Numbered from the stretch's first letter, positions 14,297-30,088 are shown. The stretch is 64,000 nt of DNA from an uncultured Maribacter sp. (GCF_947500985.1 NZ_CANMTX010000008.1:59669-123668), one strand, 5' to 3'. The notes: generated by a model not told the origin, from the letters alone. Translations and numbers: made by a program.

Positions 14297-14404
14297 TTAT
14301 AGTTGTGCCATAAAACCTGTAGCAATTATAATTAACAATACTATTATGATAACGAGGTTGTAAAACCTTCTTTTCTTTTTCTTGGTTTCTTTAAGTGATG
14401 CCAT
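14297..14404 (-). CDS. 35-aa single-pass membrane peptide MASLKETKKKKRRFYNLVIIIVLLIIIATGFMAQL (not in ORF track)
   Basis: Translated by hand; polybasic N-terminus plus one hydrophobic helix; TAACTTTG promoter element 7 nt upstream of the ATG. Confidence 0.65.
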   Translation of the reverse strand: MASLKETKKKKRRFYNLVIIIVLLIIIATGFMAQL

Positions 14405-14411
14405 AAAAATG

Positions 14412-14419
14412 CAAAGTTA
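14412..14419 (-). promoter_or_regulatory. -7 promoter element for the 35-aa ORF (and possibly tamB-tamL)
   Basis: Minus-strand TAACTTTG matches TAnnTTTG. Confidence 0.6.
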
Positions 14420-14529
14420 AACCTACCAATATATAAATTTAGCTTATTTGCTACGAAGATTATCGGTAAACAACATATTCTATGTATGTGTTTGGTTCTA
14501 AAACTAAAATTTAAAATATAAAAACAGTT

Positions 14530-14559
14530 GGTCGATACATTTTGTCAGTCGGTCTATAC
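14530..14559. promoter_or_regulatory. Imperfect direct repeat GGTCGATAC/GGTCTATAC, 21-bp period
   Basis: 14530-14538 and 14551-14559; core TCGATA-N15-TCTATA recurs exactly at 29701-29727. Confidence 0.55.
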
Positions 14560-14607
14560 TTATTCTCCCTTAGTCAATTGTGCGAGATTAGAGCGACCAT
14601 AACAATA

Positions 14608-14615
14608 TACCTTTG
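14608..14615 (+). promoter_or_regulatory. -7 promoter element for the 42-aa ORF
   Basis: TACCTTTG matches TAnnTTTG, 46 bp upstream of ATG 14662. Confidence 0.6.
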
Positions 14616-14661
14616 AAGTGTAATTAATGATTAGCAAACAATATCATTAACTCTGAATTTT

Positions 14662-14790
14662 ATGAAAACTGTTTCAAATTATAAAATGTGTTTAGGTTAT
14701 TTTGAATTAGCGAACCAAGACGAAATTTTTGAAATAAACAATTTTAATATTACAAATTCAGAATTGATACTAGAAGCTATGGCAAAATAA
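14662..14790 (+). CDS. 42-aa small protein MKTVSNYKMCLGYFELANQDEIFEINNFNITNSELILEAMAK (not in ORF track)
   Basis: Translated by hand; has its own promoter element upstream and a hairpin plus intrinsic terminator downstream. Confidence 0.55.
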   Translation: MKTVSNYKMCLGYFELANQDEIFEINNFNITNSELILEAMAK

Positions 14791-14820
14791 TAGTTGCTCA
14801 GGTAGTTCCCCCAAATTACC

Positions 14821-14850
14821 AAAGACCAATAGAAATATTGGTCTTTTTTT
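14821..14850 (+). terminator. Intrinsic terminator
   Basis: AAAGACCAAT-agaaat-ATTGGTCTTT followed by a T run. Confidence 0.8.
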
Positions 14851-15952
14851 ATTTTAAACCTTTCGTTTGAATTTTATGAAAACTGTCTGCTTGTAGACGA
14901 AGTAGTTCTTCTGCTTTTTTCTTTTTATAGCCGTACAATTCTTCTTCACCTTTTAAATCTTCATATATTTTCTGATTGATTTCACTATCAGTTGAAGCAA
15001 TGAGCTTTCGTTGCGCCAGTTTTTGCTCCACCCAAGTAGAAAGAACGCTTTCTTCCTCTTCTGATTTAATATCATATTCCCCTTTAGGAGCAAGTAGCTT
15101 AGCTATAATTGGTGAAGTCTCAATAGCCAAAAACAAAAGAAATATAAAAAATGATGGTAGCCATGGCAATTCGTCTAAAGCCGTAATTCTAGCCATTAAT
15201 CCGTCGAAACCGTCTATAATAGGTTGCGAATTTTTAACTACTTCAGCATATTCTGTATCTAATGCTGCTATTTGAGATTCTATCGCCGAAACTTTTTCAT
15301 TATTAGTAGTTTTTAGAGCCTGTAATTCTGCAAGAGCTGCATCATGCTTATCTCGTTTTTCGGCATAAACGGGACCTTTACCTAGCAGTTTGGTTCCGGC
15401 AGTACCTTCGGCTTCATTGATATAAATATCATATAGTGCATTTGTCTCCGTTTCTTTTATTGAAACTTCATTTTTTAATGCAGCAATATCTTGATTCAAT
15501 TGCTCAACCTTTGGGGTGTATTGCAACGCGAGTTGGTCTTTGTTGGCAAGTGTAAGTTCATTCTTTTGCTCCAACAACACCTGATTGATTTCTTTCTCGA
15601 AAATTTTCATTTCCAAGGGTTTCGAAATTACTATGGCAATTATGACTGCGAGAATGATACGCGGAGTAGCTTGTAAAAATTCTTGACCAAAATTGTTTCT
15701 CTTTTTAATGGTAGCAACTATAAAACGATCTAAATTGAATATTAATAATCCCCAAATGAAACCGAAGAATACTGCAGTATACACATTGTCGAAAACCGTG
15801 AATAGTGCATAACTACTAGCAATAAAAGCCATTACAGCTGTGAAAAATACAGTAGCGCCAATACCGGCATATTTGTTTTGCTCACCTTTAGAGCAGGTTT
15901 TTAAAAGATCGGCATCTGCCCCTGAGCAGAGAATAAAGAAGTCTTGTATCAT
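14849..15952 (-). CDS. DUF4407-like membrane/coiled-coil protein
   Basis: CSGAD...YAGIGATVFFTA and LIFNLDRFIV motifs, TM helices then long coiled coil; ATG 15952 preferred because the track start at 16024 lies in a terminator. Confidence 0.75.
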   Translation of the reverse strand: MIQDFFILCSGADADLLKTCSKGEQNKYAGIGATVFFTAVMAFIASSYALFTVFDNVYTAVFFGFIWGLLIFNLDRFIVATIKKRNNFGQEFLQATPRIILAVIIAIVISKPLEMKIFEKEINQVLLEQKNELTLANKDQLALQYTPKVEQLNQDIAALKNEVSIKETETNALYDIYINEAEGTAGTKLLGKGPVYAEKRDKHDAALAELQALKTTNNEKVSAIESQIAALDTEYAEVVKNSQPIIDGFDGLMARITALDELPWLPSFFIFLLFLAIETSPIIAKLLAPKGEYDIKSEEEESVLSTWVEQKLAQRKLIASTDSEINQKIYEDLKGEEELYGYKKKKAEELLRLQADSFHKIQTKGLK

Positions 15953-16022
15953 GATTAATGATTTGTTTTTGATTGATGATGATGTATACTGGGTGAACGT
16001 AACTATTTCATTTTTGGTACGC

Positions 16023-16047
16023 AAAAAGCCCTCGAAAAGAGGGCTTT
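16023..16047 (-). terminator. Intrinsic terminator of the blaI-blaR1-like operon
   Basis: AAAGCCCTC-gaaaa-GAGGGCTTT with an A run on the left (U tail on the minus strand). Confidence 0.75.
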
Positions 16048-16068
16048 AACATATGTTTGACGTTGTGG

Positions 16069-19000
16069 TTATCTTATTGTTACAGGTTCTTTGGTAATTC
16101 TTACTTCTGCTTTGCCATTTTTCTCTCTAGATTCTATATTTAACTCTTTCTTTTTCTTTAGTAGGTCAATGGCTTTATCAGACGAGACTTCTTTGCCTTC
16201 GTAGAAGAATGTTGCTCCTTTTTTTGCCATGTTAATAGCATAGTCTAATGGTGATGGTGGTGTAGGAGGAGATGGCGGAGGTGGAATAAGATCGGTATTA
16301 GTTTTCTTGTAAATTTTAATCTCTGGTGGTCTGTTGGCATAAGGTAGAGTTTGAATTTTAATGTCTTTTTCGTTCTTTATAATTACAAAACCTTCTTCTG
16401 AGGATATTTTTTCACCTTCAAAATAGAATTGGGCATTTTGTTTTTCTAGTGAGCGTAAATATTCCATTAGACTAGGGTTGTTTTTAGTTTTGGCGCTATT
16501 TGAGTTATAAATGTATACTCTAGTGTTTTCTGGTTTCTTCTCATCATATTTTAGCTCTTCATCAGTGTTGATATAGGCAGTGTTATTATGTGGTAAATTA
16601 TTCGCTTTGTGCTGTAATAATTCGCCATCGTATGTATCTTGGGTTGCTATAATCCTTTCAATTTCAGCATCTGCATAAGCAGCGGTATTCGGAGCTTTTG
16701 GCGCTTTTGGTACAGGTGGCGGTTCTGGAAAATCTGGGAATGGCTCTGCGGCTGTTTTTTGTTTAGCAGACATTAATCCGTAGATATAATTTAAATTATC
16801 AAGATCAGCTTTCATGATGCGAATATTACCACCTTTGGATATCATGGTGTTATAACTTTTTGCCAACTTATTGTAGGTGGAAATTTGCTCTTTTGTAGCA
16901 CCATCTTGATTTTGCTTAGGCAAAGACTTGGGGAAGGGTTGAGCCTCTTCTCTTTGAGCTGGACTCAAATTTCTATAAACAGACTCCAATATTTTTAAAT
17001 CATTAAGTGGAATCTCTCGTTTTTTAACGTGAATAGCGTTGTATTTTTTGGCAAGTTTATTATATGTGGAGAAAGCTCTTTTGCTGAGGTTGGCATTGAT
17101 GTCACCCGAAGTTGTATATACAGCGAACTGAGCAGTGTCGTAACTCTCTAATGGAGACATTGCTTTTATACTGTTTCTATTAATATAACCGTTCAATTTG
17201 TAAGCAGGTAAATTCTCTTTATCATTAATAGCTATTATATCGTTTGTAGAATTTAGTTTAATCCATGACGTAGCATCTACTAAATAAGGTGTTTCATTAA
17301 CCTCTACAATACAATTGGTATTACCATTTTTTGCATCCTCTAACTTTGAATTGAAAAACCGTTCGCTTTCAATTATAGATTTGTTTTTCGAAACTGATGT
17401 ATAATCTAAGTTGCCGTTGCTTGTGAAAAGTTTAGAGAACTCAGGTGTAGCTCCATAATTTTTTTGAAGACCGAAGAAGAAGGAGCTAGTAATTTTACTT
17501 TGAAAATTTCCCCAATGCTCTTTTTGTAATAATGATTTATAGCCATCCTTTTTGACTGTTAGGTTAAAATTTATTTCATCTGGTGAGCTATTATTTAATT
17601 CAAACGAATAATATCCTTTAATGTCTGTTTTGGTGAGAACGGTTCCGTTATGGTCCTTAATTTCTGCATTTACTAAAGGTTCTAAAGTTTCAGAATCTAT
17701 TACTAAACCTGCGAGTTCTATTATTCTGTTTGGGTTTTTGTTTGAAGTGTTGTCACTTCTCAATTTATTAGAAGAATCATCTTCGGGCATGGCATATCTA
17801 TCCGAGAATATGGTGATACTTTTTGTATTTAATTTTCTCAATTCTACTGTTATAGCATCTGTAAAATCTGAATCGATATGCTCAGTGGTATAAACTTGCG
17901 CTGATAGTTTATTGTTTTTAATCGCTAATGGAAATTCTGCCTTTACCTTTTCATTTAGTTTTGATAGAGGAACAAGTTGATCATTGAACCATATTTCATT
18001 TTCATTTTTAATTTCTATCCAAGCTATCTCTAACAGTGGTTCATTATTAGCGTCTGTTTTATGAGTGTTAAGTACATTATTTCTACGAATTTTTTTAGCT
18101 TCATCTATCGTTTTTCCATCATAATCACTTGAAGCAAATCCATTTTGATTAAAAATCCCAGTTGTCCTTTTACTAAAATGTTCAATATTAAAAATGCCCA
18201 CAGACTGAAGTTCTGATTGTACTTGATCTATAAGTTTATATTGATTTTCATCATATAAAATATTTGCTGTTATGTAATTCTTAAAGATATATGTGTCAAT
18301 ATTTTGATTTACGTTAAGTGCTTTTTCAGATAGTTTTTCTAAAGCTACGGGCTCATTATTCATTAATAAACTTCCACTTTTTGTGATTTCTATATTAATG
18401 TCTTTAATCGTGTTTTGAGCTATTACATTTTTTTGACTAAAACCATAAAGCATTAAGGCCAATACAGGTAGCAACAATAGGCTTCGTAATACAATTCCTT
18501 TTTTTGATGTTTGTTTTTTCATGATGATGAATCGTTTTTTGATTGATGAATAATTTATGGCATTGGCAATACCAACTGATTGATAGGTCTTAAAGCTGTC
18601 GTTTGATAAGTACGACAGTAACGTGTTTTGATAATTTAAATGGTCTTCTTGACCATTAAGTACAGCACTATCTGCTAAGAATTCATGGTTTAGTTTTATT
18701 GTTTTTTTGTAAACGTAAATCAACGGATTGAACCAGAATACCACTTGCAATACTTCAAGAAAAAGTACATCTAAACTATGCCTTTGTATAGCATGGGTTT
18801 CTTCATGTTTTATTACGGAATCTGGTATGCTGTTGACCTCAAATTTTCGTTTGTTTAGAAATATGTACTTTAAAAAAGTATGTGGCGGCAGTTGTTCTTT
18901 TAGTAATATTCTATAGATAGTACTATGTTTCGTTTTTGGGTTGTTATGAATACGTTTCCAGATTTTATAGAGGTTGATAAGAAAGCGCAATGAGAATCCT

Positions 19001-19305
19001 GCAACACCTAATCCGTAGATAGTCCATAAAATTAAATACCAATTCATGGGCGATGTTTCTACAGCCTTAACTACTGGTTGTATATCTTGAGGTTCATTTA
19101 TTGATATAATTTGAGTGACTGCCGTGGTGGGTTCTACTTCAATATATTCTGTAAAAACAATTTGGGGTATTATAAAAGAAGCGATAACGGCGGTTAATAG
19201 AAAGTATCTTTTAAAATGGTGCATGCTTTCTTTCTCCAAAAGGAGTTTATAGAAAAGCAAAAATATGCTCATACATGCGGCGGATTTTAAAAGATAGATT
19301 ACCAT
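16069..19305 (-). CDS. M56 (BlaR1/MecR1) family metallopeptidase with large mosaic C-terminal region
   Basis: N-terminal TMs, HEETH zinc motif, WFNPL...HEFLAD and IKKRFIIM motifs; 2 bp downstream of blaI. Confidence 0.9.
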   Translation of the reverse strand: MVIYLLKSAACMSIFLLFYKLLLEKESMHHFKRYFLLTAVIASFIIPQIVFTEYIEVEPTTAVTQIISINEPQDIQPVVKAVETSPMNWYLILWTIYGLGVAGFSLRFLINLYKIWKRIHNNPKTKHSTIYRILLKEQLPPHTFLKYIFLNKRKFEVNSIPDSVIKHEETHAIQRHSLDVLFLEVLQVVFWFNPLIYVYKKTIKLNHEFLADSAVLNGQEDHLNYQNTLLSYLSNDSFKTYQSVGIANAINYSSIKKRFIIMKKQTSKKGIVLRSLLLLPVLALMLYGFSQKNVIAQNTIKDINIEITKSGSLLMNNEPVALEKLSEKALNVNQNIDTYIFKNYITANILYDENQYKLIDQVQSELQSVGIFNIEHFSKRTTGIFNQNGFASSDYDGKTIDEAKKIRRNNVLNTHKTDANNEPLLEIAWIEIKNENEIWFNDQLVPLSKLNEKVKAEFPLAIKNNKLSAQVYTTEHIDSDFTDAITVELRKLNTKSITIFSDRYAMPEDDSSNKLRSDNTSNKNPNRIIELAGLVIDSETLEPLVNAEIKDHNGTVLTKTDIKGYYSFELNNSSPDEINFNLTVKKDGYKSLLQKEHWGNFQSKITSSFFFGLQKNYGATPEFSKLFTSNGNLDYTSVSKNKSIIESERFFNSKLEDAKNGNTNCIVEVNETPYLVDATSWIKLNSTNDIIAINDKENLPAYKLNGYINRNSIKAMSPLESYDTAQFAVYTTSGDINANLSKRAFSTYNKLAKKYNAIHVKKREIPLNDLKILESVYRNLSPAQREEAQPFPKSLPKQNQDGATKEQISTYNKLAKSYNTMISKGGNIRIMKADLDNLNYIYGLMSAKQKTAAEPFPDFPEPPPVPKAPKAPNTAAYADAEIERIIATQDTYDGELLQHKANNLPHNNTAYINTDEELKYDEKKPENTRVYIYNSNSAKTKNNPSLMEYLRSLEKQNAQFYFEGEKISSEEGFVIIKNEKDIKIQTLPYANRPPEIKIYKKTNTDLIPPPPSPPTPPSPLDYAINMAKKGATFFYEGKEVSSDKAIDLLKKKKELNIESREKNGKAEVRITKEPVTIR

Positions 19306-19307
19306 GA

Positions 19308-19673
19308 TTACTTCTTTTCGATTTCTACGTCTATTAGCTTTTTCAATTCTTCTAACTCAGCTTTACTTAAGTTAGTTTCTTGAGTAAAAAAAGATGCGAA
19401 CTGACTAGCGCTATCATTAAAAAAGTTTTTAATGAGCCCATTAACGTGCTTAGAGAAATAATCTTTCTTTTTTACCAACGGAAAGTATTCTCTACTTCTA
19501 CCAAAGTTTTTATAATCAATAAACTTTTTGTCGGCCATTCTTTTTAATAATGTGGCAACAGTGGTCGTAGCAGGTTTTGGCTCTGGGTAAGCATCGAGTA
19601 GATCTTTCATGAAAGCCTTTTTCTGCTTCCATAGAATATTCATTAATTCTTCTTCCGATTTTGACAATTGCAT
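19308..19673 (-). CDS. BlaI/MecI/CopY family repressor
   Basis: MQLSKSEEELMNILW, TTVATLLKRM..K and FFNDSASQFASFF motifs. Confidence 0.92.
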   Translation of the reverse strand: MQLSKSEEELMNILWKQKKAFMKDLLDAYPEPKPATTTVATLLKRMADKKFIDYKNFGRSREYFPLVKKKDYFSKHVNGLIKNFFNDSASQFASFFTQETNLSKAELEELKKLIDVEIEKK

Positions 19674-19677
19674 TTTC

Positions 19678-19735
19678 TACAAGTTTAGAAGGTGTTCTAC
19701 AAACATAGAGTAAATATTTTAATTCTACAAGTGTA
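19678..19735. promoter_or_regulatory. Three BlaI/CopY-type operators (TACAnnTGTA-like)
   Basis: TACAagTTTA 19678-87, TACAaaCATA 19698-707 and perfect TACAagTGTA 19726-35, each in a TTCTACA..AGA context upstream of blaI. Confidence 0.8.
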
Positions 19736-19753
19736 GAGTATTTTTGTTTTTTT

Positions 19754-19826
19754 GCCTTAGGGATAGTAATGAAAAGCCCGTATTCGCTTTTTAGCAAAGC
19801 GTACTTGTAATGTATAGCCCGACCCC
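19754..19826 (-). ncRNA. Probable Flavo-1-type structured RNA / Flavobacterial repeat element
   Basis: Minus strand GGTCGGGCTATACATTACAAGT-[CGCTTT-gctaa-AAAGCG]-..GGGCTTTTCATTACTATCCCTAAGGC, with an internal GGGCTwTwCATTACwA duplication; resembles the Flavo-1 family as I recall it, not verified. Confidence 0.55.
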
Positions 19827-19895
19827 AATTCTTTGGGGAAAGGTCCAATTGACCCACTTAAAAGATGTAAATTTGTATTATAAAAATAATGAATA

Positions 19896-20474
19896 ATGAG
19901 TGTATTAGCTGATTTGGAAGCACGTAGTAGCTCCACTTGCGAATTATGTACGGGAATCAATAATTTAGAAGTTTTTGGAGTAGAACCGGTTTCTATTAGC
20001 GGAGTCGATTCTAGTATTTTAGCATGCGAAACATGCCGAACTCAAATTGAAGACCCAGAACAAATGGATGCAAACCACTGGCGTTGTCTTAATGACAGTA
20101 TGTGGAGCGAGTATGATTCTGTTAAAGTTGTGGCTTGGAGAATGCTATCTAGACTAAAGTCTGAAGGTTGGCCTAAAGATTTATTGGACATGATTTATTT
20201 AGAGCCAGAAGCTCTAGACTGGGCAAAGGCAACAGGTGAAGGTTTAGCGGAAGCCGATAAGATTATTCATAGAGATGTGAACGGGGTAATTTTAGAAAAT
20301 GGGGATAGCGTTGTTTTAGTAAAAGATTTGAAGATAAAAGGATCTAGCCAAGTTGCTAAGCAAGGTACTGCAGTTCGAAAAATTTCATTAGATCGTGAAA
20401 ATGCAGAATATATAGAAGGTAAAGTAGGACCAACAATGACGGTTATAATTACCAAATACGTTAAGAAAATATAG
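19896..20474 (+). CDS. PhnA/YjdM domain protein with N-terminal zinc ribbon
   Basis: CELC..CETC, HWRCLNDSMWSE and GDSVVLVKDLKIKGS motifs; TAAATTTG promoter element at 19868-19875. Confidence 0.85.
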   Translation: MSVLADLEARSSSTCELCTGINNLEVFGVEPVSISGVDSSILACETCRTQIEDPEQMDANHWRCLNDSMWSEYDSVKVVAWRMLSRLKSEGWPKDLLDMIYLEPEALDWAKATGEGLAEADKIIHRDVNGVILENGDSVVLVKDLKIKGSSQVAKQGTAVRKISLDRENAEYIEGKVGPTMTVIITKYVKKI

Positions 20475-20514
20475 TTTTTAGTTCATGGAACTTTAATAGC
20501 ATCTAATTTGTCTG

Positions 20515-20556
20515 AAAAAATAAAACGTCTTTACTCCTAAAGACGTTTTATTTTTT
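20515..20556. terminator. Bidirectional intrinsic terminator
   Basis: A6-TAAAACGTCTTT-loop-AAAGACGTTTTA-T6 between convergent genes. Confidence 0.85.
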
Positions 20557-20565
20557 AATTTATTT

Positions 20566-20613
20566 TCAACTGTCAACTGTCAACTGTCAACTGTCAACTG
20601 TCAACTGTCAACT
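20566..20613. repeat. Perfect heptamer tandem repeat (TCAACTG) x6.9
   Basis: Six complete copies plus 6/7 of a seventh, overlapping the dipeptidase stop codon. Confidence 0.95.
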
Positions 20614-22003
20614 ATTTCTTGGTCATTTCTGTAAAATACTCATAGAAATAAGGGATGGTTTCAATTCCTTTAAAATAGTTCCATACTCCGAAATGTTCGT
20701 TAGGGGAGTGTATGGCATCACTATCTAGACCAAAGCCCATAAGTATAGTCTTGCTTTTTAGTTCTTGCTCAAATAAAGAAACAATAGGAATACTACCACC
20801 ACTACGTTGCGGAATTGGTTTTTTGCCAAATGTAGTTTCATAAGCTTTTGAAGCTGCTTGGTAAGCAATGGTATCAATGGGAGTAACATATCCTTGTCCG
20901 CCATGATGTGGTTTCACGACCACTTTTACACCTTTAGGTGCTATAGCTTCAAAATGAGTTTTGAATAAATCGGTAATTTCTTTCCAATCTTGATTAGGAA
21001 CCAATCGCATAGATATTTTTGCGAATGCTTTACTCGCAATAACAGTTTTTGCACCTTCGCCAGTATATCCGCCCCAAATACCATTAACATCTAATGTTGG
21101 TCTAATAGAATTACGTTCGTTAGTAGAATATCCTTTTTCTCCGTAAACAGATTCAATATCCAAAGCCTCTTGGTATTTTTCAATACTAAAAGGTGCTTTT
21201 GCCATTTCTGCACGTTCTTCAGTAGAAAGCTCTTCTACCTTATCATAAAAACCTGGTATAGTAATATGATTATTTTCATCATGTAGACTAGCAATCATTT
21301 TAGTTAGAATGTTGATAGGGTTGGCAACGGCACCGCCATATAATCCTGAATGTAAATCACGATTAGGACCAGTAACCTCTACTTCAACATAACTTAGACC
21401 GCGTAAACCTGTAGTTATAGACGGCACATCATTGGCAATCATACCTGTATCCGATATTAAAATAACATCGTTTGCCAGCTTCTCTCTATTTTCAGCGACG
21501 TAGATGGCAAGATTATTACTGCCAACTTCTTCTTCACCTTCAATCATGAATTTTACATTACATGGCAGTTGATTAGTTTTTACTATCAACTCCAATGCTT
21601 TTACATGCATATACATTTGACCCTTGTCATCACATGCTCCACGCGCAAATATGGCACCTTCTGGGTGTAATTTCGTTTTTTTAATTACCGGCTCATAAGG
21701 TGGCGAAGTCCATAATTCCAATGGTTCTGCCGGTTGTACATCATAATGGCCATATACTAGAACCGTTGGTAGATCTTTATTTATGAATTTTTCACCATAT
21801 ACTATTGGGTAACCAGCTGTTTCATGAATTTCAACAATATCACAACCTGCTTCTTCTAATCTGGTTTTAACTGTTTTGGCAGTATCTAACACATCTTGAG
21901 AAAAGGCAGGGTCTGCGCTAACAGACGGAATCTTAAGTAGTTCGATAAGCTCATTTAAAAATCGGTCCTTATTTTCCGATAGATAATTCTTTACGTTTTT
22001 CAT
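20612..22003 (-). CDS. M20/M25/M40 family dipeptidase
   Basis: YGHYDVQP, RGACDDKGQ, EGEEEVGS and IHSPNEH motifs. Confidence 0.92.
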   Translation of the reverse strand: MKNVKNYLSENKDRFLNELIELLKIPSVSADPAFSQDVLDTAKTVKTRLEEAGCDIVEIHETAGYPIVYGEKFINKDLPTVLVYGHYDVQPAEPLELWTSPPYEPVIKKTKLHPEGAIFARGACDDKGQMYMHVKALELIVKTNQLPCNVKFMIEGEEEVGSNNLAIYVAENREKLANDVILISDTGMIANDVPSITTGLRGLSYVEVEVTGPNRDLHSGLYGGAVANPINILTKMIASLHDENNHITIPGFYDKVEELSTEERAEMAKAPFSIEKYQEALDIESVYGEKGYSTNERNSIRPTLDVNGIWGGYTGEGAKTVIASKAFAKISMRLVPNQDWKEITDLFKTHFEAIAPKGVKVVVKPHHGGQGYVTPIDTIAYQAASKAYETTFGKKPIPQRSGGSIPIVSLFEQELKSKTILMGFGLDSDAIHSPNEHFGVWNYFKGIETIPYFYEYFTEMTKK

Positions 22004-22086
22004 GTGCTATTTTATATGACTTTCGATAAAAGTACAAAAAGCGTAATTTTTAAATAGCTAAAATTTAGAGAATTGATTTTTTGCGT

Positions 22087-22094
22087 TATATTTG
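22087..22094 (+). promoter_or_regulatory. -7 promoter element for tRNA-Leu
   Basis: TATATTTG matches TAnnTTTG. Confidence 0.65.
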
Positions 22095-22131
22095 CACCCC
22101 GATAATCACATATCGTGATTTAGGAAAGTAT

Positions 22132-22213
22132 GCAGGCGTGGTGGAATTGGTAGACACGCTAGACTTAGGATCTAGTGCCTTGCGGTGTGAGAGTTCGAGT
22201 CTCTCCGCCTGTA
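22132..22213 (+). tRNA. tRNA-Leu(TAG)
   Basis: Acceptor GCAGGCG/CGCCTGT, anticodon arm CTAGA-CT TAG GA-TCTAG, GTTCGAG T-loop, long variable arm; CCA not encoded. Confidence 0.97.
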
Positions 22214-22220
22214 CAATGAG

Positions 22221-22250
22221 AAGCCTCTTGAGAAATCAAGAGGTTTTTTT
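22221..22250 (+). terminator. Intrinsic terminator after tRNA-Leu
   Basis: AAGCCTCTTG-agaaat-CAAGAGGTTT plus T run. Confidence 0.8.
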
Positions 22251-22377
22251 ATGTGCTAGATTTAATCAACTCTCGACTTTACTAAATATCACGCCCATTA
22301 TTTCTTACCCTTGTAAGTTTTCATTATTATTTACTTCTAATGCAATGGTAATGCTAACAGTATAGAAATAATATAAT

Positions 22378-23586
22378 ATGGGCTTCGAAAAAGTAACTTT
22401 CACAAATTCTCAAGGAAAACAATTGGCTGCACGGTTAGAGTTGCCTACTAATCAAGATGCACACAGTTATGCAATTTTTGCGCATTGTTTTACATGTAAT
22501 AAAAACTTATCTGCAGTCCGTAATATTTCAAGAGCATTAGTAAATAAAGGTATAGCGGTACTTCGGTTCGATTTTACGGGTTTAGGAGATAGTGAAGGTG
22601 ATTTTGAAGAAACCAATTTTACATCTAATGTTTCTGATCTAATACAGGCAGCTAAATTTTTGGAAGATAATTATAAGGCTCCTTCTTTATTGGTAGGGCA
22701 TTCATTAGGTGGTGCCGCAGTAATTTTTGCCGCTTCGCAATTAGAATCAGTATTGGCTGTAGCAACTGTTGGGGCGCCATCTTCTCCTTCGCATGTGCAG
22801 CATTTGTTCAAATCAAGTGTAGCGGAGATTAATGCGACCGGTAAAGCAAAGGTGAATATAGGTGGTAGAGATTTTACCATTAATAAAGATTTTATAGATG
22901 ATATTGAGTCAAAACCTATGGAGTCTGTGCTTAAGAACATGAGAAAACCTTTTTTGGTTATTCATTCGCCACAAGATACCATAGTAGGTATTGAAAATGC
23001 GAAAGAATTATACAGCTATGCGCATCACCCAAAAAGTTTTGTGTCAATTGATAAGGCAGACCATTTATTAATGAATAGTGCAGATTCTACTTATGTTGGT
23101 AATGTAATATCTGGTTGGGCAGAACGTTATTTAGATATTCCGAAGAAAGAGATTTTAAAAACTTCTCATCAAGTGGCGGTAAGTATCGGTAATGAAGGGT
23201 TTACCTCTGAAATTGTTTCGGGTAATCATTTGTTAATAGCTGATGAGCCAATAGATTTTGGAGGCAATGATTTTGGACCATCACCCTATGACTATTTGGC
23301 TTCTGGTTTAGGTGCTTGTACGGCAATGACCTTAAGAATGTATGCGACCCGTAAAAAATGGGATTTACAAAAGGTAATTGTACATGTAGATCATGGTAAA
23401 GATCATGCGCCAGATTCAGAAAATGTTTCTTCTGACGGAAAAAAAATTGATACTTTCAAAAGAGAAATAGAAATATTCGGAAATTTAGATGAAAGGCAAC
23501 GACAAAGGTTGTTAGAAATAGCAGATAAATGTCCTGTACATAAAACGCTTTCTAAAGGCGCTATGATTAAGACAGAATTAAAATAA
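22378..23586 (+). CDS. Bifunctional alpha/beta hydrolase / OsmC family protein
   Basis: FAHCFTC, GHSLGG nucleophile elbow; C-terminal GPSPYDYLASGLGACT and ADKCPVHKTL. Confidence 0.92.
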   Translation: MGFEKVTFTNSQGKQLAARLELPTNQDAHSYAIFAHCFTCNKNLSAVRNISRALVNKGIAVLRFDFTGLGDSEGDFEETNFTSNVSDLIQAAKFLEDNYKAPSLLVGHSLGGAAVIFAASQLESVLAVATVGAPSSPSHVQHLFKSSVAEINATGKAKVNIGGRDFTINKDFIDDIESKPMESVLKNMRKPFLVIHSPQDTIVGIENAKELYSYAHHPKSFVSIDKADHLLMNSADSTYVGNVISGWAERYLDIPKKEILKTSHQVAVSIGNEGFTSEIVSGNHLLIADEPIDFGGNDFGPSPYDYLASGLGACTAMTLRMYATRKKWDLQKVIVHVDHGKDHAPDSENVSSDGKKIDTFKREIEIFGNLDERQRQRLLEIADKCPVHKTLSKGAMIKTELK

Positions 23587-23607
23587 TATGATTTAAGAAT
23601 TAAAACT

Positions 23608-23889
23608 ATGATACAAGCAATTTGGAATAATAAGGTGATTGCAGAAAGTGATGCAACTGTTGTAATTGAAGGAAATCATTATTTTCCGCCGAACGATATT
23701 AAAAAAGAGTTTTTTAAAAGTACAGAAACTCATAGTATGTGCCCTTGGAAAGGCATTGCATCTTATTACGATCTAGAAGTAGACGGTGAAGTAAATAAAG
23801 ATGCGGCATGGTATTATCCAGAAGTTTCTGAATTAGCAAATGGTATTAAAGGTTATGTTGCCTTTTGGAAAGGTGTTGAAGTGAAATAG
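23608..23889 (+). CDS. DUF427 family protein
   Basis: EGNHYFP, CPWKGIASYY and DAAWYYP motifs. Confidence 0.9.
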   Translation: MIQAIWNNKVIAESDATVVIEGNHYFPPNDIKKEFFKSTETHSMCPWKGIASYYDLEVDGEVNKDAAWYYPEVSELANGIKGYVAFWKGVEVK

Positions 23890-23909
23890 AGTATTAGTTA
23901 TAGATTATT

Positions 23910-23938
23910 AAAGGGTCAGCCAAAAGCTGACCCTTTTT
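23910..23938 (+). terminator. Intrinsic terminator
   Basis: AAAGGGTCAGC-caaaa-GCTGACCCTTT plus T run. Confidence 0.85.
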
Positions 23939-24008
23939 GTATTGATAAATTATCATTCCGTATTAAATACCTTATATTTAAATTTAATAAATTTTGATGT
24001 TCGCTTAA

Positions 24009-26813
24009 ATGATATTGAAATCTTTATATAGCTTAATTTTTCTTTTTGCCTTGTGCGTCTCGGGTCAAGAGCTCCCACCAATTCAAAATTACACTCCTAT
24101 TGAATATAATGCTGGTAACCAGAATTGGTCTATTGCCCAATCTAATGAACAGACAATGTATGTTGCAAACAATAATGGATTGTTAGAGTTTAATGGAAAT
24201 ACTTGGAACTTGTATCAAGTGCCTTATGGCACTCCCGTAAAATCTGTTATGGTTTTAAATGAAAGGGTGTTTACAGGCAGTTATATGCAATTTGGGTATT
24301 GGGTACGTAATGAATTTGGAGTTTTGATCTACACATCTATTTCTGACCAGTTGAAAACACCGCTTATTGAAGATGAAGATTTTTGGAATATATCGCATTT
24401 CAAAGACTGGGTTTTATTTCAATCATTAGATAGAATTTATATTTACAATATTAAAAAGGCAACATTTGAAATTTTGGATGCCAAAAGTAATAGCCCTAAA
24501 ATATTTGAATTAGGCAATAAAATATTTTTTCAAAAGCTGGGTGAAGGTTTATTTACATTAGAGAATGGAGAGCCTATTTTAGTGTCTGATGACTTAATCC
24601 TTAAGCAGACTAATGTAGTTGGTGCATTTCTTGCGGATAATAGAATACTAATCATTACAGAACAGGCAGAATTCTTTTATCTAGAAAATAATATTCTAGT
24701 TGAATGGAAATTGCCTGTAGAGACAGATTTATATCTGAGTAAGATTTATAGTGCTATACGTTTAAATGATGGGTCTTATGTCTTGGGTACAATCTCAAAA
24801 GGCATATTTCAATTAGATGTAAATGGTAATATCATAAGAAATATTAATCAAGAAAAAGGTCTTAACAACAATACAGTATTGTCGTTATTTCAAGATATAG
24901 ATAATAACCTGTGGCTTGGGTTGGATAATGGAGTTAGCGTTATCAATTTAGACTCGCCTTTTAAAGAATATATTGACCATGTAGGGGCTTTAGGTGTTGT
25001 TTATACTGCTAATAAAAAAGGTGATTTTTTATATTTAGGTACAAATCAAGGACTGTTTTATAAAAAATATCAAGAAGGAAATGCTTTTAAACTCATTAAA
25101 GGTACCCAAGGTCAAGTTTGGTTGTTAAAAGAAATTAACGGTACATTATTCTGTGGTCATCACAATGGAACTTTTGTTATATCGGATGATACTGCTACGA
25201 AAATTTCAGAAGTTTCAGGTACATGGGATATTCAAAGTATAGAAAATAAACAAGAATTGCTAATTCAAGGTAATTATAAGGGTTTAAGTGTACTTGAGCA
25301 AATCGGTGATAAATGGCAATACCGAAATAGTATTGATGGTTTTGATAGTTCAAGTAGATTTTTTGAGTTCGTCGGAGAAAATCATTTACTGGTCAATCAT
25401 GATTATAAGGGAATTTTTGACTTGCAAATTAACCCCGAATATAAGAGGGTTGTAAAACTAAACAGTAGGGAGTCTAAAGGTAATGGTTCTAGCTTGGTTA
25501 GATTTAAGGGTGATATTCTTTATAGTACTATTAACGGTGTTTTCAAATACAATATAAATCAACATGAATTTTTAATAGATTCAGTACTGACAAGCAAATT
25601 TTTTAATGCTGATGAGCGTATTATCGGCATACTTCAGGCGACTAACAATTTCGAAAGGTTATGGGGATTTACTAATGATAATATAATTACTGTTTCTAAT
25701 GGGTATTTAAGTAAAGAACCACAAACGGTTAAAATTTCAATTCCAAATTTTTTTAGGCGTAGTATGGGAATCTTAGGTTTTGAATCTATCGTGCATATAG
25801 ATAAAGATCTTTATTTGATAGGTATTTCTAACGGTTATGTCACTTTAGATTTAAGTGAAGTTAAACAGAGTGATTATCAAATAATGATAAATTCTGTTTC
25901 TGGAAAGTCTAATGAGGTCCCTAAAATTGATATTTCTCTTCAAGACAATCAAGAATTAGAGTATTCAGAAAATAACGTAAGTTTTAGTTATAATGTTACA
26001 GAGTATGATAGATATACAGAGGTGTATTATCAAAACAAATTAAAAGGTTTAAATGAAGAATGGAGCACTTGGTCACTTATTCCCAATACTTCCTTTGATA
26101 ATCTGCCGTATGGCTCTTATGAGTTTAAGGTGAGGTCCAAAGTGGGTAATAGTATGTCAATTAATACAGCTGTTTATAGCTTTAAAATTCTAAGACCTTG
26201 GTATGCGTCATATTGGGCTATTTTATGTTATGTCATACTAGCAGCTTTAATCTCTTTTCTAATTCACAGAAATTATAAGAACTATTACAAGAAACAGCAA
26301 AATCAACTTATAAAAGCTAATAACAAACGATTAAAACGTAAGAAACTAAAAAACCAGAAGAAGATAGTTCAAATAAAAAATGATCAATTACAAGAGCTTG
26401 TTGATAGTAAAAATAGAGAGTTGGCAATCTCTACAATGAGTATTATTAAGAAGAATGAGTTTTTAAGTGCTATTAAAGATCAATTGAAAAGTAGCACTGA
26501 TAACCCAAAGGTGAAATCTGTTATTAAAACTATTGATAGAAATATTAATAATGAAGACGATTGGAAATTTTTTGAAAGTGCATTTAATAATGCAGATAAA
26601 GATTTCTTGAAAAAGGTGAAAGAAAAGCACTCTGAGCTATCTGCTAATGATCTAAGGTTGTGCGCCTACTTAAGATTAAACCTGTCTTCTAAAGAAATTG
26701 CACCTCTTTTGAATATATCGGTCAGAAGTGTTGAGGTGAAACGATACCGCCTGCGTAAAAAAATGAAACTTCCACGTGAAACTGGTTTAACAGACTATAT
26801 CATCAGTTTATAA
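24009..26813 (+). CDS. One-component regulator: periplasmic beta-propeller + Y_Y_Y domain + TM + LuxR-type HTH
   Basis: Signal peptide, NQNW and LWLGLDNG propeller repeats, PYGSYEFKVRS...FKILRPWY, C-terminal LCAYLRLNLSSKEIAPLLNISVRSVEVKRYRLRKK. Confidence 0.9.
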   Translation: MILKSLYSLIFLFALCVSGQELPPIQNYTPIEYNAGNQNWSIAQSNEQTMYVANNNGLLEFNGNTWNLYQVPYGTPVKSVMVLNERVFTGSYMQFGYWVRNEFGVLIYTSISDQLKTPLIEDEDFWNISHFKDWVLFQSLDRIYIYNIKKATFEILDAKSNSPKIFELGNKIFFQKLGEGLFTLENGEPILVSDDLILKQTNVVGAFLADNRILIITEQAEFFYLENNILVEWKLPVETDLYLSKIYSAIRLNDGSYVLGTISKGIFQLDVNGNIIRNINQEKGLNNNTVLSLFQDIDNNLWLGLDNGVSVINLDSPFKEYIDHVGALGVVYTANKKGDFLYLGTNQGLFYKKYQEGNAFKLIKGTQGQVWLLKEINGTLFCGHHNGTFVISDDTATKISEVSGTWDIQSIENKQELLIQGNYKGLSVLEQIGDKWQYRNSIDGFDSSSRFFEFVGENHLLVNHDYKGIFDLQINPEYKRVVKLNSRESKGNGSSLVRFKGDILYSTINGVFKYNINQHEFLIDSVLTSKFFNADERIIGILQATNNFERLWGFTNDNIITVSNGYLSKEPQTVKISIPNFFRRSMGILGFESIVHIDKDLYLIGISNGYVTLDLSEVKQSDYQIMINSVSGKSNEVPKIDISLQDNQELEYSENNVSFSYNVTEYDRYTEVYYQNKLKGLNEEWSTWSLIPNTSFDNLPYGSYEFKVRSKVGNSMSINTAVYSFKILRPWYASYWAILCYVILAALISFLIHRNYKNYYKKQQNQLIKANNKRLKRKKLKNQKKIVQIKNDQLQELVDSKNRELAISTMSIIKKNEFLSAIKDQLKSSTDNPKVKSVIKTIDRNINNEDDWKFFESAFNNADKDFLKKVKEKHSELSANDLRLCAYLRLNLSSKEIAPLLNISVRSVEVKRYRLRKKMKLPRETGLTDYIISL

Positions 26814-26816
26814 TCT

Positions 26817-27067
26817 CCCCTACAAAACTTTAAACTACCACAACATTACCACAACATTGACTTATTTATTGTATTTATTATATGTATTTTATTCCCGCTT
26901 TTAAGTGGATGATTCACTGCTTTTTATTATCATAATCTCTATTTTTTACTATTAATTTTAAATTGTATGTTTTTTGTAGGGGTAAAAATTTACAATTTGA
27001 TAATTGCTTAATGTAAATTGCATAAGCGATTATCTGTATTCAAACACTACATAGTTAGTTGGTGGTA
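26817..27067. promoter_or_regulatory. Cluster of CCMCWACA-type motifs, candidate operators of the adjacent LuxR-type regulator
   Basis: CCCCTACA 26817, TACCACAACAT x2 at 26836-26857, inverted TTTTGTAGGGGTA 26972-26984, ACACTACAT 27044. Confidence 0.55.
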
Positions 27068-27112
27068 TGTTTAGATAAATCGTAAATCAAATAATTAACT
27101 AAAAAAATAACT

Positions 27113-29197
27113 ATGAAAAAATTAAAGTACATCATGGTATCGGTATTTGCAGTAATGATGAGCTGTGATGGTGATGACATTGATATTCCAGAATCGGTTA
27201 CGCCTTCTAATCTTACAGTTAGTGCTCAAAATATGGGCGAAGGTGTATTTGACTTTTCAGCATCTGCAACGAATGCTAATTATTATCATTATGATTTTGG
27301 TGATGGTACCACTGCTTTAGAAACTTCTGGGGCAACTTCTAAAACCTATGAAGAAATAGGTGATAATATGTATACCGTTACCGTTACCGCAGGTTCTACT
27401 GAAGGTAAAAAGATTTCTGAGACTATAGATGTTTCTGTTTCATTAGCATTTACCGACACTGAAACGGTGACTTTCTTAACGAATGACAGTTCAAAAACAT
27501 GGTTTTTGGCAGCATCTCAACAGGGTCATCTAGGACTAGGACCTGCAAGGGAAGGAATTGATGGAGATTGGTGGTACCCTAAATGGTTTTCTGCTTCTGC
27601 ATTTGAAAAATGTGGAACGGAAGATTCTGATTGTCTTTGTGATGATGAGCTTACTTTTTCAGTAAATGAAAATGGAGGTTTAGTTTACACTTTAGATAAT
27701 AAGGGTCAAACTTATTTTAACGTTGGTCATAAAGCCGTTGTAGGTGGTGGAGAAGATATTGATTTTTGTTATGATTTTGATACTTCGGGCGAAAAAGCAG
27801 TTCAACTTTCTGAAGTAGAGGGTAATGTTCCAGAGGGTGAGACAACCGGAATACAAATGACATTTTCTGATGGAGGTTTCATGGGATACTATGTAGGTTC
27901 TTCTGTTTATGAAATACTATCTATTAGTGATGATTTCTTATATGTAAGAACGTACGATACTGAGAATGCAGATTTAGCATGGTACCATAAATTTACTTCA
28001 GATGTTGCTGTTGATGGTGGTGAAGAAAGTCTTGAGACCATTTATACCAATTTAGTTTGGTCAGATGAGTTTGATGTTGATGGTGCACCAAACGCTGCTA
28101 ATTGGGGTTATGACCTTGGCGCAGGTGGCTGGGGTAATGGTGAGGCTCAAACTTATACAGATGCAGCTGAAAACGTAAAAGTTGAAGACGGTGTTTTAAA
28201 AATCACTGCTATAGCTGGTGAGGGCGAAGCAGCTGTTCACTATTTTGACGAAATGACTTTGAGTGATGGAAGTGGCGGTACGCAAACTTTAGAAGATTTT
28301 GAAGGTGCAGCTCCTGTTTTTACTGGATTTGGAGGTGTTGGAACTGCAGTAATTGCAAATCCGGATCCTACGGGAGAGAATACTAGTGCTAATGTGGCAG
28401 AATCTACTAAAACTTTAGGTGCTGAAACATGGGCAGGTTCTTTCTTTGATTTGTCTGCACCGGTTGATCTTGTTGCTTACCCTAATATTAGTTTAAAAAC
28501 ATGGTCGCCTGCTACTGGAGCCAATATAATTTTGAAACTTGAAAATCAAGCTAATGCTGATGAGAATGTTGAGGTAAGTGTTAATTCAACTGTTGCTAAT
28601 GCTTGGGAAACACTAAACTTTGATTTCACTGGTGTTCCAGTTGGTACTTATGACCGAGTTGTGTTGTTTTTTGATTTTGGTGTTTCTCCTTCTGGCGGAA
28701 TTACTTCAGGTCGTATTAAATCTGAAAACTTATACGAGTTTACTTATGGTAGAGTTGAGATAAGAGCTAAGCTTCCATCTGCCGGAGGTACTTGGCCTGC
28801 ATTATGGGCTTTAGGTGCTAATTTTGATGAAGTTGGTTGGCCTACAGCTGGAGAGATAGATATTATGGAACATGTTGGCAATAATAACAATACCATTAGT
28901 AGTGCATTACATTATCCTGGTAATTCTGCAGGTAATGCTATAGTGGGATCTACACCAGTTGAAAATGCAACTTCTGAGTTTCATAATTATACTGTAGAGT
29001 GGACACCTGATAGCATTAAGTTTGTTGTAGATGATCAGTTAGTTCATAACAGTTTTGTGAACAACGCTACAACACCATTTAACGCCGATTTCTTTTTGAT
29101 AATGAATGTCGCTATGGGTGGTACATTAGGTGGTAGTATCGATGCGGAATTTATAGAAGATACAATGGAGGTTGATTATGTGAGAGTGTATCAATAA
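27113..29197 (+). CDS. Lipoprotein GH16 (laminarinase-like) with PKD domain and an inserted module
   Basis: Lipoprotein signal ending MMSC; YDFGDG PKD motif; LVWSDEFD, WPALWALG and catalytic GEIDIMEH (E-x-D-x-x-E) motifs. Confidence 0.88.
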   Translation: MKKLKYIMVSVFAVMMSCDGDDIDIPESVTPSNLTVSAQNMGEGVFDFSASATNANYYHYDFGDGTTALETSGATSKTYEEIGDNMYTVTVTAGSTEGKKISETIDVSVSLAFTDTETVTFLTNDSSKTWFLAASQQGHLGLGPAREGIDGDWWYPKWFSASAFEKCGTEDSDCLCDDELTFSVNENGGLVYTLDNKGQTYFNVGHKAVVGGGEDIDFCYDFDTSGEKAVQLSEVEGNVPEGETTGIQMTFSDGGFMGYYVGSSVYEILSISDDFLYVRTYDTENADLAWYHKFTSDVAVDGGEESLETIYTNLVWSDEFDVDGAPNAANWGYDLGAGGWGNGEAQTYTDAAENVKVEDGVLKITAIAGEGEAAVHYFDEMTLSDGSGGTQTLEDFEGAAPVFTGFGGVGTAVIANPDPTGENTSANVAESTKTLGAETWAGSFFDLSAPVDLVAYPNISLKTWSPATGANIILKLENQANADENVEVSVNSTVANAWETLNFDFTGVPVGTYDRVVLFFDFGVSPSGGITSGRIKSENLYEFTYGRVEIRAKLPSAGGTWPALWALGANFDEVGWPTAGEIDIMEHVGNNNNTISSALHYPGNSAGNAIVGSTPVENATSEFHNYTVEWTPDSIKFVVDDQLVHNSFVNNATTPFNADFFLIMNVAMGGTLGGSIDAEFIEDTMEVDYVRVYQ

Positions 29198-29219
29198 TAG
29201 AAGTTTATTTTAAATTTTT

Positions 29220-29255
29220 AAAAGGCTATCGAAAATATTTTCGATAGCCTTTTTT
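29220..29255 (+). terminator. Intrinsic terminator after GH16
   Basis: Perfect palindrome AAAAGGCTATCGAAAATATTTTCGATAGCCTTTT plus T run. Confidence 0.85.
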
Positions 29256-29348
29256 ATTTTATGTTTTAAAATTAATGAGTGTTATTGCTTCATATTATTT
29301 TACTCTGACACATATGAAATGATCTTGTGTTAGTAAAATGCTGAAATG

Positions 29349-29378
29349 AAAAAAGCCCCTTTTGCAAGAGGCTTTTTT
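29349..29378 (-). terminator. Intrinsic terminator for the minus-strand small-ORF transcript
   Basis: AAAAAAGCCCCTT/AAGAGGCTTTTTT; the single mismatch is a U-G wobble only on the minus strand. Confidence 0.75.
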
Positions 29379-29418
29379 ATAAAGTAATTTTTTTCAATAA
29401 GGGTTTGGTTTTAAAAGA

Positions 29419-29541
29419 TTAGACAATCCCTAGAAGGGCTAAAAAAGCTCCTACTACGACTACAGCTAAAAATGCATGCATTGCAATTACGAGCACGGAT
29501 AGATAAGTTTCTACTCCGGTTTTAAATGATAAATTGTTCAT
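29419..29541 (-). CDS. 40-aa membrane peptide MNNLSFKTGVETYLSVLVIAMHAFLAVVVVGAFLALLGIV (not in ORF track)
   Basis: Translated by hand; long hydrophobic helix; terminator 40 bp downstream. Confidence 0.65.
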   Translation of the reverse strand: MNNLSFKTGVETYLSVLVIAMHAFLAVVVVGAFLALLGIV

Positions 29542-29768
29542 AACATTACCTACTTTAAAGTTACATTACTAAAGTTAGCTGAATTAAGCAACAATTCCAT
29601 ATAAAATGTTGTAAAACTCTCATAATTAGCTGTATAATCCTACTTTTTAGTGGTTTAAGGTTTTTGAAATGTGCATTTCAACCTTGAAAAAGGTATCTTG
29701 TCGATATCTGAAATACAACACTCTATAAACTTTCACTACATATTGTAGCATTTGTCGGTAATGTTATG
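29539..29768. repeat. Perfect 12-bp inverted repeat CATAACATTACC (29539-29550) / GGTAATGTTATG (29757-29768)
   Basis: Read directly; arms 206 bp apart; one arm covers the 40-aa ORF start codon. Confidence 0.8.
29701..29727. promoter_or_regulatory. Bipartite motif TCGATA-N15-TCTATA (second exact copy)
   Basis: TCGATA 29701-06 and TCTATA 29722-27; same hexamers and spacing as 14532-14558. Confidence 0.55.
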
Positions 29769-29775
29769 GTAACAT

Positions 29776-29913
29776 CTATTTAATTAGATTCAACCAATCT
29801 GCTACACCTGCCAAGGGTACTGATAATAGTATTATTACTAAGCAGGTAATCATTAATTTAAGAAATCCGTTGAGTATTTTAACTCCTGAAGTTAGTTCTT
29901 GTTCCATAATCAT
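29776..29913 (-). CDS. 45-aa membrane peptide MIMEQELTSGVKILNGFLKLMITCLVIILLSVPLAGVADWLNLIK (not in ORF track; alternative start 29907)
   Basis: Translated by hand; one hydrophobic helix; same orientation and similar layout as the 40-aa ORF. Confidence 0.6.
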   Translation of the reverse strand: MIMEQELTSGVKILNGFLKLMITCLVIILLSVPLAGVADWLNLIK

Positions 29914-30088
29914 TGTTCTATTGTTCTGCTTTCAATATGGTAGATCTAACCTAAAGTGCTGTTAAATAGGAGGGTAAAATCGATTAACGTATAGAAAGTA
30001 TCTGTATAAAGTATGTTTTCTATACAATAACTAGTAGTTATGAAAATGGTTTACTAAATAATATAGGGGGTAGTTAATTGAATATAAT

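Follow-up and report, generated by a model that had tools for sequence, protein, structure and literature searches.

The sequence considered here is a stretch of 64,000 nucleotides from an uncultured Maribacter sp. (GCF_947500985.1 NZ_CANMTX010000008.1:59669-123668), which we call the window. A preliminary description of it had proposed that a bipartite motif, TCGATA-N15-TCTATA, places small membrane-protein genes in two intergenic regions (locus 1 and locus 2) under the control of one regulator. Comparison with related genomes indicates that these regions contain four independent, conserved, real small-protein genes, s35 and s42 at locus 1 and s45 and s40 at locus 2, and we hypothesize that these form no shared regulon: they would have separate promoters, the identity of the motif at loci 1 and 2 would be a chance match between AT-rich intergenic regions and not a shared operator, and the one real cis-element would be local, a direct repeat at locus 1 that contains the first copy of the motif. 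To this explanation as a whole we assign a probability of about 0.72. What the comparisons show directly is conservation of sequence, phasing and coding signatures; the transcription starts, the binding of a regulator and the operon structure are deductions. The features on which the argument turns are as follows.

14297..14404, minus strand: s35, gene for a 35-amino-acid small membrane protein (MASLKETKKKKRRFYNLVIIIVLLIIIATGFMAQL), a conserved open reading frame (ORF) and the first cistron upstream of tamB
14662..14790, plus strand: s42, gene for a 42-amino-acid acidic non-membrane small protein, conserved in 10 genomes
29776..29913, minus strand: s45, gene for a 45-amino-acid small membrane protein (MIMEQELTSGVKILNGFLKLMITCLVIILLSVPLAGVADWLNLIK); public calls mostly start at 29907 and give 43 amino acids
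29419..29541, minus strand: s40, gene for a 40-amino-acid small membrane protein (MNNLSFKTGVETYLSVLVIAMHAFLAVVVVGAFLALLGIV), a conserved ORF
14532-14558, plus strand: motif copy 1, TCGATA-N15-TCTATA, an exact match
29701-29727, plus strand: motif copy 2, TCGATA-N15-TCTATA, an exact match
29980-30006, plus strand: motif copy 3, the degenerate TCGATT-N15-TCTGTA, found by sequence match
14531..14561, plus strand: direct repeat RTCTAYACWT-N11-RTCTAYACWT with a period of 21 base pairs (bp), containing motif copy 1, from a 10-genome alignment

A pattern search of the window bore out the positions given for all three copies of the motif, as well as the -7-like elements said to lie about 113 and 123 nucleotides from it, which are TAACTTTG at 14419..14412 and TAACTTTA at 29577..29570 and 29563..29556, all on the minus strand. 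The distance from motif to start codon differs among s35, s40 and s45 (128, 160 and 67 nucleotides, respectively). The motif-specific search gave an expectation of 0 matches, yet the pattern was a single one picked post hoc; because it had been chosen after being seen, we dropped this figure as a measure of significance and used counts over all patterns in its place. The window holds 2,111 distinct 6-N15-6 patterns that recur at least twice, and mononucleotide shuffles hold about 1,400. When the two intergenic regions (14405-14661 against 29542-29775 plus 29914-30088) were subjected to dinucleotide shuffling and compared for 6-Nx-6 patterns with x from 0 to 30, 48% of the shuffles shared at least one exact pattern between the loci on the same strand and 65% did so on either strand; the observed number of shared patterns is four, arising from two independent events, and P(≥4) = 0.11. 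Searching for TCGATW-N15-TCTRTA across 80 related Flavobacteriaceae loci (about 1.4 Mb), the orthologous sites of the nearest species included, returned zero matches, so that the check suggested for related genomes went against the motif. A match between the loci that chance can produce and that relatives do not keep lends no support to a shared regulon. A regulon of this kind, if true, would have meant a new regulatory circuit; an exact gapped 12-mer common to two AT-rich intergenic regions weighs almost nothing without conservation.

For locus 2 we aligned ten Maribacter loci fetched via the exact s40 protein and two more distant loci fetched via homologues, in sets of 11 and 8 sequences. 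Only the TCGA core of copy 2 (29701-29704) is invariant; its TCTATA half varies, reading TTTAGA, TTTATA or GCTATA in orthologues, and the change T>G at 29722 is already present in contigs of strains that are 98-99% identical. The surrounding segment, 29597-29810, is not alignable at 80% identity in organism F, a more distant species, whereas alignment succeeds there for the s40 and s45 ORFs and for the blocks just upstream of them. In copy 3, the TCGATT half falls inside an invariant block and the TCTGTA half is found only in the window, being replaced elsewhere by TCTGTG or TCCTTA; A>G at 30006 was seen in 4/4 runs examined, again from strains 98-99% identical. This variation of the half-sites among relatives argues that the bipartite motif at locus 2 is not under selection.

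The alignment of locus 1, which comprises 10 Maribacter genomes (loci fetched via s42 homologues, together with L001 and L091), gives the repeat a mean pairwise identity of 0.82 as against 0.585 for the intergenic background, with 2% of background placements scoring equally high. The first repeat unit of the window is the variant GTCGATACAT. In other species this unit reads TCTATA, TCTACA or TCTAAA, and TCGATA is confined to the window and to relatives nearly identical with it; it is a lineage-specific variant, and the cross-locus identity with locus 2 is therefore removed. With a locus-1 consensus of TCTAYAC/TCTAYAC and locus-2 halves that vary and keep only TCGA, the two loci share no conserved motif through which one regulator could co-control s35, s40 and s45. 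Among all the loci fetched, the locus-1 consensus matches the orthologous sites and a few scattered places only.

The position of the repeat is best described relative to the promoter of s42. The Bacteroidota promoter consensus is TAnnTTTG, with transcription starting 4-5 nucleotides after the G (PMC6847099), and a box of this type precedes s42:

14608..14615, plus strand: -7 box of s42 (TACCTTTG), matching the Bacteroidota consensus TAnnTTTG, with a predicted transcription start near 14620

The box is nearly invariant (TAYCTTTG) in the 10 genomes, and the promoter has no recognisable -33 element. The repeat begins exactly 76 nucleotides from it in 10/10 genomes and 116-124 nucleotides from the -7 box of s35, which vindicates the caveat in the preliminary description that the first copy could serve the plus-strand 42-amino-acid ORF. 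Because the s42 transcription start is predicted near 14620 by the Flavobacterium johnsoniae rule, the first repeat unit falls at about -89..-80, with its centre near -85, and the second at about -68..-59, with its centre near -64. From this phasing we infer that a factor acting on s42 binds upstream of it: the repeat would be occupied, on one face of the helix, by a transcription factor that is dimeric or bound in tandem and that controls the s42 promoter. Thus the repeat most likely serves s42, and locus 1 is, by the alignments, the only locus that carries a selected element with a 21-bp period; the direct repeat claimed for both loci survives at the first and loses its second half-site at the other. 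A promoter-phased direct repeat of this kind gives the search for the s42 regulator a defined target.

The four ORFs are all present as described, namely the hydrophobic minus-strand ones starting at 14404 (35 amino acids), 29541 (40 amino acids) and 29913 (45 amino acids) and the plus-strand one of 42 amino acids. That they are unannotated does not hold in general: s40, s42 and s45 are entered as hypothetical proteins in NCBI Maribacter genomes, s42 among others in M. aquivivus, M. forsetii, M. dokdonensis and M. hydrothermalis, and s35 is a called gene (a 35/37-amino-acid ORF) in a public gene collection. The conservation of the peptides in relatives, which the preliminary description had proposed as a check, points to real genes under purifying selection, distributed essentially over Maribacter and a few related Flavobacteriaceae. 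In the 10 genomes, which were sampled via s42 and hence independently of s35, the s35 protein is 90-100% identical, against about 50-60% for the adjacent DNA. The numbers of variable columns at the first, second and third codon positions are 12/2/17 for s35, 17/17/29 for s42 and 8/3/12 for s45. The s40 gene of M. huludaoensis differs from that of the window by 7 nucleotide changes, 7/7 of them synonymous, the protein being 100% identical, and in organism F 11/16 changes affect the third base of a codon. An identical s40 protein is found in 43 blocks of public assemblies. Homologues form 15 clusters in Maribacter for s45, 10 clusters for s42 and 8 for s40; an exhaustive HMMER search found just four clusters related to s35. 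The s42 protein keeps the pattern CLGYFE...EIFEI...NITNSELILEAM throughout its 10 genomes. Pfam and NCBIfam contain no significant match for any of the four peptides, no paralogues of the small genes were found elsewhere in the window, and a search of both intergenic regions for known RNA families returned only sub-threshold matches driven by terminators. We also considered s40 and s45 as paralogues of each other, which was not demonstrated (hhalign probability 7.8%, BLASTP E = 0.1). Our proposal is that each of the four genes would be transcribed from its own sigma-A-type promoter.

Several observations weigh against the explanation that we favour. The compared genomes all belong to one genus, and those fetched via s40 are biased toward that ORF. 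The TCGA core is invariant in both copy 2 and copy 3, which could conceivably have short contacts in common. The locus-1 consensus, with up to two mismatches allowed, has 6 matches in the window where 1.4 are expected; four of these are in coding ORFs, and the others are the locus-1 site itself and the region upstream of blaI. The conserved block upstream of s45 likewise has the heptamer TCTATAC, in the form of an inverted pair. Contigs from transcriptome runs of a related species cover s45 and s40, but they are long multi-gene contigs, unable to define transcription starts.

Other explanations involve the neighbouring genes. Locus 1 is flanked by the tamB-Omp85 group and by the blaI-blaR1-DUF4407 operon, all on the minus strand:

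6928..9252, minus strand: Omp85/POTRA gene downstream of tamB
9242..14239, minus strand: tamB, TamB/AsmA-like (Pfam PF04357, E = 1e-66)
14849..16024, minus strand: DUF4407 gene
16069..19305, minus strand: blaR1-like M56 gene
19308..19673, minus strand: blaI
19676..19737, plus strand: three BlaI-type operators upstream of blaI, TCTACA-NN-TGTAGA and variants (TCTACAAGTTTAGA, TCTACAAACATAGA and TCTACAAGTGTAGA)

Conceivably, the neighbouring BlaI-like repressor (operon 14849..19673) uses the two units of the repeat at locus 1 as half-operators, so that s42 or s35-tamB would be linked to its signalling; we regard this as unlikely. The three operators upstream of blaI include the natural half-site variants TCTAAA and TCTATG, and the units at locus 1, which read TCTACA, TCTATA or TCTAAA across Maribacter, belong to the same half-site family, although the resemblance was spotted post hoc and is based on 6 bases. 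The exact palindrome TCTACANNTGTAGA stands upstream of the orthologous blaI in 55/99 fetched Flavobacteriaceae loci and is therefore a very widely conserved operator, in keeping with TACAnnTGTA as the operator of the BlaI/MecI/CopY family (PMC7253601). That palindrome is found at 19676-19737 and is absent from 14531-14561: BlaI-family dimers bind palindromes, and the right-hand halves at locus 1 show no TGTAGA-like sequence. Locus 1 does lie directly downstream of the blaI-blaR1-DUF4407 operon in all Maribacter genomes examined; direct units 21 bp apart at about -60 to -90 are, however, activator-like rather than repressor-like.

Two further alternatives concern LytTR regulators and locus 2, which lies between a GH16 gene (27113..29197, plus strand) and kdtA:

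30089..31336, minus strand: kdtA (Kdo transferase; Pfam PF04413), upstream of s45-s40 on the same strand
29915..30035, minus strand: conserved block of about 120 nucleotides upstream of s45, near-invariant in 11 Maribacter sequences and partly kept in L100
29542-29618, minus strand: conserved promoter block of s40, with TAACTTTA boxes at 29563..29556 and 29577..29570
29349-29378: terminator of s40

The block upstream of s45 contains an inverted repeat (GTATAGAAA/TTTCTATAC) and the sequence TACGTTAAT (29993..29985), and it probably holds the promoter and regulatory region of s45. Whether it is a LytTR-type site (TACTTTAYA-N13-TACGTTAAT) that places s45, and possibly s40, under a LytTR system encoded elsewhere is a question to which we would answer, with some assurance, no. 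The 9-mer is exactly the PlnC/PlnD repeat consensus (PMC2714321) and is invariant in the 11 Maribacter sequences, yet that consensus is of a Lactobacillus, i.e. Firmicute, regulator, and we estimate the chance probability of a single such match at about 0.01-0.1, given the several consensuses that could have been compared. It stands about 20 nucleotides upstream of the likely -7 region, and s45 has no clear TAnnTTTG box. A partner, TACTTTATA, agrees with it at 6 of 9 positions 22 nucleotides upstream (29985-30015, minus strand), but this left unit is weak and is weaker still in L100, the block is largely missing in L103, and nothing ties it to locus 1. In the M. ulvicola-like genomes (L100-L102), a LytTR response regulator and a LytS-type kinase adjoin s40 and are convergent with it.

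Least probable, and in our judgement very improbable, is a single regulator, LytTR-type or other, that binds the 21-bp-period motif at three sites and co-regulates s35, s40 and s45: it can point to the exact 12-position match at two loci with a degenerate third, to the lie of all three sites upstream of small hydrophobic ORFs proven to be real genes and to the LytTR pair of the M. ulvicola-like genomes, but the bipartite unit is not conserved at locus 2, the consensus at locus 1 is TCTAYAC and not TCGATA, the repeat there is phased with s42 and not with s35, the start-codon distances are unequal, chance suffices for the match, and neither the window nor L103 nor L081-L090 have the LytTR pair at the corresponding position. 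Within its 64 kb the window yielded no LytTR gene at all: a Maribacter LytTR regulator used as tblastn query gave E > 1, and Pfam recognised the domain in none of the candidate ORFs.

Returning to separate promoters for the four genes, we consider s35 in its genomic setting. The protein has a basic cluster, KKKKRR, followed by one transmembrane helix, and the gene has its -7 box very close to the start codon:

14412..14419, minus strand: -7 box of s35 (TAACTTTG), 7 nucleotides before the ATG

Box and spacing are invariant in the 10 Maribacter genomes, though the 7 nucleotides between box and ATG vary. Two of the four s35-related clusters had their context fetched; both are more distant, metagenomic contigs (L104, with 40% G+C, and L105), and in both an s35 homologue again stands between the DUF4407 gene and tamB, with a box-to-ATG spacing of 7 nucleotides in L104 (2555-2580) and 9 in L105. 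Transcription from the TAACTTTG box would make s35 the nearly leaderless first cistron of an s35-tamB-Omp85 operon; with 7 nucleotides between box and ATG, the leader is predicted to be 2-3 nucleotides long, which would be an unusual length in Flavobacteria, since the majority of leaders there have more than 10 nucleotides. We also examined whether s35 might be a split or frameshifted N-terminus of TamB. The two are in frame, but three stop codons intervene, and in both genomes TamB has its own N-terminal transmembrane anchor (MTDTNSKFKKYIKLLGKIILGVLLLFFILVLVV); s35 is therefore no broken TamB N-terminus. Searching the literature turned up no description of a small protein upstream of tamB in Bacteroidetes. 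For the machinery of TAM/AsmA-like lipid transport, about which little is known in Bacteroidota, s35 would be a concrete candidate accessory factor.

At locus 2, s45 follows kdtA on the same strand with its conserved upstream block, and s40 follows s45 with a conserved promoter block of its own. All Maribacter loci preserve kdtA-s45(-s40) in this order, and the gene beyond s40 varies. More distant s45 homologues, 43-45% identical, occupy the same interval between kdtA and tRNA-Leu in Maribacter sp. 2308TA10-17 (L002) and Cellulophaga sp. F20128 (L024).

Several further observations were made at this locus. A 15-nucleotide stretch after the s45 stop codon (CAUAACAUUACCGAC, 29768..29754, minus strand) is complementary to the start region of s40 (GUAGGUAAUGUUAUG, 29553..29539, minus strand). 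In 9 genomes 87% of cells pair, versus 28-56% in slid controls, and the upstream arm, after the s45 stop, varies mostly by changes that preserve G.U pairing; in an s45-s40 read-through transcript this pairing may mask the s40 start codon. In runs X2 and X5, compared against 29350-29938, a second, more diverged set of contigs has matches confined to the ORFs of s45 and s40 with the proximal promoters, at a different spacing; such contigs would represent paralogous s45-s40 cassettes or else another Maribacter present in the sample. The interval from kdtA-s45(-s40) to tRNA-Leu and the M20 peptidase gene (22132-29400) is a variable insertion slot. Its contents in the window are an OsmC-hydrolase, a DUF427 protein, a Y_Y_Y/LuxR hybrid regulator and the GH16 protein; L100 has a LytTR two-component system together with a TonB receptor there, and L103 has DUF1501/DUF1800. 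Apart from the s45 homologue, L024 carries nothing but a small lipoprotein-like ORF in this interval, to which L002 adds a 443-amino-acid transporter-like ORF. The M20 peptidase of the window is 94% identical in amino acid sequence to that of M. huludaoensis, the closest species; the window as a whole has a G+C content of 34%.

Sequences around s42 show two features of their own. The stretch 14793-14816 after the gene (GTTGYTCAGGTAGTTCCCCCAAA), with 14798-14815 invariant, is almost unchanged in the 10 genomes and better kept than the ORF itself; it has no Rfam match, and a hairpin follows it:

14821-14846: conserved bidirectional terminator hairpin 3' of s42

An exact direct repeat of 19 nucleotides (TGAATTTTATGAAAACTGT) occurs at 14654-14672, where it spans the s42 start codon, and at 14868-14886, in the 3' end of the DUF4407 gene, which is on the opposite strand. 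The second copy is apparently not conserved in other genomes.

What emerges is four families of small proteins, confined to Maribacter and its close relatives, whose genes are real. A wider reading would join them to their neighbours: s35 might be a small protein of the inner membrane that partners or regulates the flavobacterial TAM system, s45 and s40 might act analogously beside KdtA, and the RTCTAYACWT repeat might be the control site of the adjacent BlaI/BlaR1-like envelope sensor for the divergent s42 and s35-tamB. We stress that we consider this reading doubtful; if it is true, s35, s45 and s40 would be a set of mini-proteins attached to the biogenesis of outer-membrane lipids and proteins.

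Small membrane proteins and an upstream direct-repeat site are both of known kinds, and judged on sequence the novelty of the system is modest. Small membrane proteins encoded beside the envelope machinery that they modulate include AcrZ, MgtS and KdpF. Like these, s35, s40 and s45 are conserved single-helix proteins of 35-45 amino acids encoded beside such machinery (tamB-Omp85 and kdtA); unlike them, they have no sequence relation to any described family and are known from sequence alone. With the BlaI/MecI/CopY operators, the repeat at locus 1 has the half-site in common, the TCTAnA of the blaI operators being equal to the repeat unit, but its half-sites are direct and 21 bp apart, without a palindromic TGTA partner. 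The sites of the LytTR regulators PlnC/PlnD, AgrA and ComE consist of two 9-bp direct repeats with a 12-13-bp spacer, and the Pln repeats abut the -35 box (PMC2714321). The locus-1 element resembles them in that its direct units recur at 21 bp, hence on one helical face, upstream of a promoter; it differs in having units of 10 bp (RTCTAYACWT) and an 11-bp spacer, unlike the LytTR consensuses known to us, in that its right unit ends at 14561, about 46 nucleotides before the -7 box (14608) and not directly at -35/-33, and in not being common to locus 2. The sigma-A promoters of Bacteroidota also offer a likeness, since s35, s42 and s40 share their -7 boxes (TAACTTTG, TACCTTTG and TAACTTTA, respectively) at conserved positions; the predicted s35 leader of 2-3 nucleotides stands apart from those of F. 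johnsoniae, where the leader exceeds 10 nucleotides in 87% of predicted transcripts (PMC6847099), and would make the s35 mRNA almost leaderless.

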